From Escherichia coli (GTDB lineage Bacteria > Pseudomonadota > Gammaproteobacteria > Enterobacterales > Enterobacteriaceae): DNA of 1,453 nt. Positions 10 through 35 of this stretch are shown here, piece after piece. Position 1 is the stretch's first letter, and every line of letters starts with the position of its first letter. The position numbers were made by a program, and so were the translations under genes. The notes under the pieces were generated by a model. It was not told the DNA's origin and searched no databases. It saw nothing but the letters and a program-made list of their open reading frames with translations. Location: assembly GCF_003334255.1 (NCBI RefSeq), contig NZ_QOWU01000158.1; one strand, 5' to 3'.

Positions 10-19
10 TATGACCTTT
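10..19. repeat. Candidate subterminal inverted repeat, right-end copy (TATGACCTTT)
   Basis: Plus strand 10..19 TATGACCTTT is the exact reverse complement of 1438..1447 AAAGGTCATA. The two copies flank the transposase gene at 9 bp and 6 bp from the window edges. The match does not extend in either direction. Confidence 0.4.
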
Positions 20-35
20 GTCAAATATTGAGCCC

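Follow-up and report, generated by a model that had tools for sequence, protein, structure and literature searches.

A putative promoter assembled across the circle junction of ISEc45, an IS110-family insertion sequence of Escherichia coli

Elements of the IS110 and IS1111 groups are documented to assemble junction promoters in which the -35 box is supplied by the right end and the -10 box by the left end (PMC11187229, PMC11208160, PMC12288879); the first-pass annotation of the present locus had stated as much for the IS110 family, with one box from each end. The window examined here, a 1453 bp stretch of Escherichia coli DNA, raises the question of whether an outward-facing hexamer near one of its edges is half of such a promoter. 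Its plus strand reads TGTCAA at 19..24, so that the minus strand reads TTGACA at 24..19, directed toward position 1; this had been read correctly from the letters. It is the only exact TTGACA in the 1453 bp with both strands counted. By count alone that is no more than chance, as 200 dinucleotide-preserving shuffles of the window held 1.10 copies on average and at least one copy in 138 of the 200. The reading of TTGACA as a functionless chance occurrence has this agreement with the shuffle expectation (one copy per 1453 bp, two strands) in its favour, and the evidence for a role lies in the position of the hexamer and in its conservation.

The window corresponds to ISEc45, a member of the IS110 family whose transposase is encoded on the minus strand and annotated in RefSeq as 'IS110-like element ISEc45 family transposase'. 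A match to ISEc45 is found in 1467 of 5426 complete E. coli genomes, with a near-full-length copy in 587, and the element is also present on many enterobacterial plasmids; our search of the published literature on ISEc45 found nothing beyond inventories. The N-terminal domain of the transposase is DEDD/RuvC-like (DEDD_Tnp_IS110, PF01548, E=3.6e-15), the C-terminal domain is Transposase_20 (PF02371, E=6.9e-23), and the protein scores 278 bits against NCBIfam NF033542, 'IS110 family RNA-guided transposase', where the cut-off is 140. Non-coding DNA amounts to 61 nt upstream of tnp and 251 nt downstream, that is, a short left end and a long right end. The assignment of the hexamer to the right end was sound, given a transposase on the minus strand and an IS1111-type layout (Table 1).

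Table 1. Features of the ISEc45 window, in window coordinates
Feature	Position	Strand	Basis
Target DNA and core, non-mobile: AAAAA (1..5) from the IS66-family (ISEc23) tnpC target, then CT, a core copy as at 1452..1453	1..7	+	Occupied versus empty sites
Final two bases at the right end (AG on the minus strand, following ...CATA)	8..9	-	Occupied versus empty sites
Right sub-terminal inverted repeat (minus strand AAAGGTCATA), forming most of the promoter spacer	10..19	.	Perfect 10-bp repeat
Proposed -35 box (TTGACA) of a circle-junction promoter	19..24	-	Presence and conservation in relatives
Structured non-coding RNA (seekRNA/bridge-RNA-like), conserved and located downstream of tnp	88..256	-	Compensatory pairs and guide/flank co-variation
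Guide segment AUAAGAGUUU, right-end terminus and core	129..120	-	Predicted pairing
Guide segment CAUAUAGA, left flank and start of the left end	184..177	-	Predicted pairing
Guide segment AAAAGAAUU, pairs with the right flank	220..212	-	Predicted pairing
Transposase gene, 377 aa	259..1392	-	Domain and family profiles
GGAGG, ribosome-binding site located 5 nt upstream of the ATG of the transposase gene	1398..1402	-	Direct reading
TATACT	1431..1436	-	Sits at the predicted transcription start, about 1435..1433
Left sub-terminal inverted repeat (minus strand TATGACCTTT)	1438..1447	.	Perfect 10-bp repeat with 10..19
Candidate -10 TATGAC, first six bases of the left repeat	1442..1447	-	17 nt from TTGACA after end joining
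TG at -15/-14 (extended -10-like, TGg before TATGAC)	1449..1450	-	Junction alignment
Core dinucleotide (AG in transposase orientation) at the left terminus	1452..1453	-	Occupied versus empty sites, and guide segment

ISEc45 shares with the IS110 family sensu lato its domains, its site specificity at a core dinucleotide, and an RNA with loops complementary to the ends and the target, whose expression and binding are predicted. In the IS1111 group the sub-terminal inverted repeats are 7-17 bp long, with short extensions beyond them at the termini (PMC11208160), and the longer non-coding region and a guide RNA are found downstream of tnp (PMC11187229). The repeats of ISEc45 are 10 bp, the extensions beyond them are 2 nt at the right and 6 nt at the left (core included), and its long non-coding region and RNA lie downstream of tnp. 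However, the transposase is 377 aa, as against 330-350 aa in the IS1111 group, and shows no full-length relatedness to that group. With the IS4321 transposase it shares about 26% identity across 78% of the length, in a BLASTP comparison with the ISEc11 transposase the C-terminal domain alone aligns (36% over 128 aa), and a published matrix gives 15-25% identity to other ISfinder entries. ISEc45 would best be described as part of a deep-branching IS110-family clade with IS1111-like organisation, rather than as an IS1111 member.

In all copies examined, ISEc45 lies antisense within an IS66-family (ISEc23-like) transposase gene. Occupied sites read GGAAAG-AAAAACT-CTTATGACC...ACCATCT-TTATGTTC, and uninterrupted ISEc23 copies, which provide the empty site GGAAAGAAAAACTTTATGTTC, read GGAAAG-AAAAA-CT-TTATGTTC. 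Comparison of the two shows a mobile unit of 1446 bp rather than 1453 bp. Insertion takes place at the same IS66 tnpC site each time with no real target duplication, the CT core alone being ambiguous: the right terminus is window position 8, or 6 if the ambiguous CT is assigned there, and the flank of one relative, L010, resolves the ambiguity. The guide segments of the RNA described below (left flank plus AGA(T); right terminus plus core) independently mark the same termini as the empty-site comparison. The corrected termini shorten the junction by 7 nt because window positions 1..5 and one CT core copy are target DNA, and TTGACA, 17 nt from the window edge, is 11 nt from the true right terminus. 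The 1453-bp window is probably the database definition of ISEc45; ISfinder entries of the IS110 family carry such boundary errors (seekRNA paper). An AG core is also known for ISPpu9 (PMC12288879). In the right flanks of L010 and a second relative, L015, an asparagine codon is AAT and not AAC, which makes the left core copy TT and not CT.

Two -10 hexamers considered in the first-pass annotation are ruled out by these ends. Its arithmetic holds if the window edges are the termini, both for TAGATG at 17 nt and for TATACT (1436..1431) needing a 35-nt spacer, but the empty sites show the 7 nt to be target plus core, and at the true junction TATACT stands 28 nt away from TTGACA, too far for the two to pair. 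It lies immediately within the left repeat and is common to ISEc45, L007 (1430-1435) and L009; L007 and L009 are the closest relatives for which a left end could be compared.

With the true termini, the right end ...TTGACA-AAGGTCATAAG and the left end AGATGG-TATGACC... form a predicted circle junction ...TTGACAAAGGTCATAAG|AGATGGTATGACC..., i.e. ...CATAAG|AGATGG.... In the transposase orientation the joined ends read ...ATAT-TTGACA-AAGGTCATAAGAGATGG-TATGAC-CTTTATATACT.... Here TTGACA adjoins the right sub-terminal repeat with a 1-nt overlap, and the spacer that follows is exactly 17 nt, consisting of 9 nt of the right repeat and 8 interstitial nt and ending in TGg. Under a sigma-70 weight matrix with approximate base frequencies, the junction scores 13.6 bits and is the best site in or around the element. 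The best site on either strand of linear ISEc45 scores 10.4 bits, the right end continued into its natural flank gives 8.6 bits or less with no credible -10, and the flank running into the left end gives 7.7 bits. When the 120-nt junction was shuffled 2000 times, only 13 of the shuffled sequences reached 13.6 bits.

Determining the termini, rebuilding the junction and scoring its spacer, as the first-pass annotation had proposed, thus gives a 17-nt spacer and the top-scoring site, but with a -10 that fails the strict consensus. TATGAC matches the -10 at 4 of 6 positions, with T(-12), A(-11) and T(-10) present and C at -7. The -7 T and the -11 A are the best-conserved -10 positions, and the strict rule of a consensus scanner would reject TATGAC for its C in place of T at -7. 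Scanning the linear window for consensus promoters gave no hit, as is expected where a promoter is split.

A 90-nt query of the joined ends had no match covering at least 80% of its length among the 5426 complete E. coli genomes. The partial matches appear to be ordinary left junctions in which the IS66 flank resembles the right end, judging from match geometry and the known flank sequence. The ISEc23 sequence beside the left end (TGCCAAAGAACATAA-AG; L002, just past window position 1453) resembles the element's own right end (TGACAAAGGTCATAAG-AG). In the integrated element this left flank weakly mimics the junction promoter (CTGCCA-16-TATGAC, 7.7 bits), and some basal expression of the transposase could originate there. 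Among metagenome contigs, a 22-nt junction pattern representing the whole clade had a sole match, L046:5324-5345, which was rejected as a chance match and not a circle junction; the match falls within an unrelated ORF (...TEVIRDGMTDEEKK...), and no transposase or IS is nearby.

For the assessment of conservation, a genome-wide search yielded 39 relatives with 46-71% protein identity and with hosts in the Beta-, Gamma- and Alphaproteobacteria, Planctomycetota, Acidobacteria and others. In the closer clade, whose termini were set as for ISEc45 from a shared site in IS66-family transposase codons, the ends read |AGATGR-(T/G)ATGACC... and ...GGTCATAAG|. When ten right ends are aligned, TTGACA and GGTCATAAG are conserved, the latter invariant or nearly so, and the sequence upstream of the hexamer is unconserved. 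Fifteen elements, a set that adds distant relatives whose repeats differ in sequence, have at the -35 position an exact TTGACA (9 elements) or a 5/6 match (4 elements; TGGACA, TTGACG, TTGACT, TTGAAA); of the other two, one carries TTGATG in that place and L025 lacks any -35-like hexamer. In a comparable window, chance would give 5/6 or better at a rate of 2.3% and 6/6 at 0.05%. TTGACA is more than chance because it is conserved at the same position in relatives, and its retention by 13 of the 15 diverged relatives, within surroundings that are not conserved, effectively refutes the reading as a functionless occurrence, to which we give next to no credence. Within the hexamer TTG and A4 are essentially fixed and positions 5-6 are looser. 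The information profile of the -35 box is likewise strong at TTG and A4 and looser at positions 5-6.

Both ends could be compared in seven relatives, and in all seven the best -35/-10 pair spans the junction with a 17-18 nt spacer. The candidate -10 is TATGAC in five of them and GATGAC in two (L014, L015), and TGn is present in all seven (AGATGR), the same bases being the conserved terminus. Conservation of the -10, of the TG and of most spacer bases is not creditable to a promoter because these bases lie inside the recombination site; the -35 box alone appears to offer conservation that is independent of recombination. For the distant clades L016/L017 and L026/L027 we infer only that, if their architecture is the same, the junction spacer would be 17 nt.

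The independence of the -35 box would be lost if the hexamer were itself part of the right-end recombination site, either as an extension of the repeat or as a transposase contact for end recognition or for distinguishing right from left, with its -35 likeness coincidental or secondary. The hexamer is indeed contiguous with the invariant GGTCATAAG block, the inverted repeat of L014 extends through TGACA to 13 bp (ATGACCATTGTCA / TGACAATGGTCAT), and the repeats of L026 and L027 themselves hold TTGACC-like sequence. Most elements, however, have no mirrored copy of the hexamer at the left end, and the distance from the hexamer to GGTCAT varies by 1-2 nt while the hexamer itself is fixed. It is kept in clades with different repeat sequences, and the variants found in its place (TGGACA, TTGACG, TTGACT, TTGAAA and TTGATG) are tolerated in -35 boxes. 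Additionally, the guide RNA of IS621 contacts only about 7-9 nt to either side of the core (PMC11208160), and the hexamer of ISEc45 is 11-17 nt away. We regard a recombination role as an unlikely explanation of the hexamer.

The first-pass annotation had offered two promoter readings, one in which the hexamer serves a junction with termini different from the window edges, and one in which it drives flanking genes. For the second, the hexamer would pair with a -10 in the flank and drive genes next to the element or a transcript antisense to the IS66 transposase gene. It does face outward at 11 nt from the true right terminus, and outward hybrid promoters are established in other IS families, but the IS66 target has no -10-like hexamer at 15-18 nt and the proposal finds no support. 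The ISEc23 hexamers at 14-17 nt are TTTTCT, TTTCTT, TTCTTT and TCTTTC, none with an A at -11, and the best of the flank (TTTCTT, TCTTTC) scores 8.6 bits or less. Flanks of the relatives (AGTTCTTGCGG and similar) likewise lack a -10, and the element is site-specific and will therefore seldom meet other flanks. Outward transcription from the hexamer thus seems very improbable. The first proposal is the one we favour, given the 7-nt shift of the termini, the 17-nt spacer to TGg-TATGAC and the conservation in 13 of 15 elements: with a probability of roughly two in three, the minus-strand TTGACA at 24..19 would be the -35 box of a split junction promoter (Pjunc) that is completed on circularisation.

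Downstream of the transposase gene lies the conserved structured RNA listed in Table 1; across 10 relatives, compensatory changes are seen in 15 of its 24 predicted pairs. Between it and the hexamer lie about 60 nt that are not conserved, and the hexamer is therefore not part of the RNA structure. The left guide repeats the 4-5 flank bases nearest the left end, followed by AGA(T) as the first bases of that end, and co-varies with the flank in 7 elements; for example, GCAGCC·AGA goes with ...AGCC|AGAT, GCAGGT·AGAT with ...AGGT|AGAT (L015), and GCATAT·AGA with ...CATAA|AGAT (ISEc45). AUAAG·AG, also a conserved segment of the RNA, is identical to the right terminus followed by the core. Co-variation of guide and flank together with matches to the ends are the hallmarks of IS110-family bridge/seek RNAs. 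An Rfam 15 scan of the window matched no family at E <= 1.

ISEc45 and its relatives L001, L002, L007, L010, L011, L013, L014, L015 and L036 all lie antisense in the IS66-family codons G-R/K-K-N-W/F-L/M-F. The ISEc45 clade, with hosts from Proteobacteria to Planctomycetota and Acidobacteria, specifically targets another IS family, IS66. The fit of the ISEc45 guides to the ISEc23 site needs a mismatch and wobble pairs, and AAAAGAA-CT-ATATG would be a perfect fit, which suggests that the optimal target of ISEc45 may be another IS66 variant. The guide AAGAAUU in the RNA of L010 and L015 is predicted to pair perfectly with TT targets and through a U:G wobble with CT. One contig, L006 (JAIJJM010000012.1), binned into a metagenome-assembled genome as Collinsella sp. 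(Actinomycetota), has a transposase 100% identical to that of ISEc45; binning contamination from E. coli is more likely than a genuine host.

A junction promoter of this kind would operate in the following way. In integrated ISEc45, TTGACA faces target DNA without a -10 and would be silent. Excision as a circle would join the right and left ends and set TTGACA 17 nt upstream of TGg-TATGAC, where sigma-70 RNA polymerase would start transcription at about window positions 1435..1433, some 7 nt past TATGAC. The predicted transcript would comprise a short leader, the GGAGG (1402..1398), the transposase gene and then, by read-through, the 3' guide RNA. The recombination machinery would in this way be boosted in the excised intermediate alone.

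The Pjunc mechanism is well known in related elements, and what is new here is its description for ISEc45. The closest parallel by layout is ISEc11 of the IS1111 family, whose junction promoter was shown to be active (Prosseda et al. 2006, J Bacteriol 188:4681, cited in PMC11187229). Like ISEc45, ISEc11 is site-specific and has a DEDD transposase, sub-terminal inverted repeats, a short left end and a guide RNA encoded in its long 3' non-coding region. In ISEc11 ends reconstructed from a plasmid copy, TTGCAA stands 2 nt inside the 13-bp right repeat, much as TTGACA stands in ISEc45, and in both elements the -10 is supplied by the left end or interstitial bases on circularisation. The reconstructed copy measures 1442 bp where 1443 bp is published, so that its junction is uncertain by 1 nt. 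ISEc11 has a shorter transposase (339 aa) and another target (GTGAAAATACTG), and the 8 interstitial nt of ISEc45 put its candidate -10 within the left repeat and not among the interstitial bases.

IS621 (Durrant et al. 2024, PMC11208160) also has a sigma-70 promoter across its joined right and left ends, a CT core and an RNA-guided recombinase, and removal of its -35 abolishes the supply of bridge RNA in cis. Its bridge RNA lies in the left end, between the promoter and the recombinase gene, and its sub-terminal repeats are only 2-3 bp; the RNA of ISEc45, on the far side of the gene, would be made by read-through. In Pseudomonas putida, ISPpu10 and ISPpu9 are IS110-family elements that recombine at AG and form minicircles (PMC12288879). 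The ISPpu10 circle creates a strong Pjunc that makes up for a weak native promoter, whereas the ISPpu9 circle creates none, which shows that the feature is not universal in the family and counts against assuming it for ISEc45. Pjunc promoters are also described for IS492, of the Piv-like branch with a short transposase, for the IS1111-attC group, and for the IS3, IS21 and IS30 families (PMC12288879, PMC11187229), the last three having DDE transposases, terminal inverted repeats and no guide RNA.

A further reading, which we consider rather unlikely, is that promoter and recombination site are one stretch of DNA. Since spacer and -10 are made up of the two repeats and the core, to which the complex of transposase and guide RNA has to bind, binding at the circle junction would repress the complex's own promoter, a negative feedback peculiar to this IS66-targeting clade with its IS1111-like layout and long IS110-like transposase. 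The C at -7 would then be a compromise imposed by the recombination site.

A junction promoter could account for an element carried by about a quarter of complete E. coli genomes being quiet when integrated and expressing transposase and guide RNA after excision. The corrected ends matter for any reconstruction of donor or target sites and for reprogramming of the guide RNA, and the conserved -35 box is a simple landmark by which right ends can be located across the clade.
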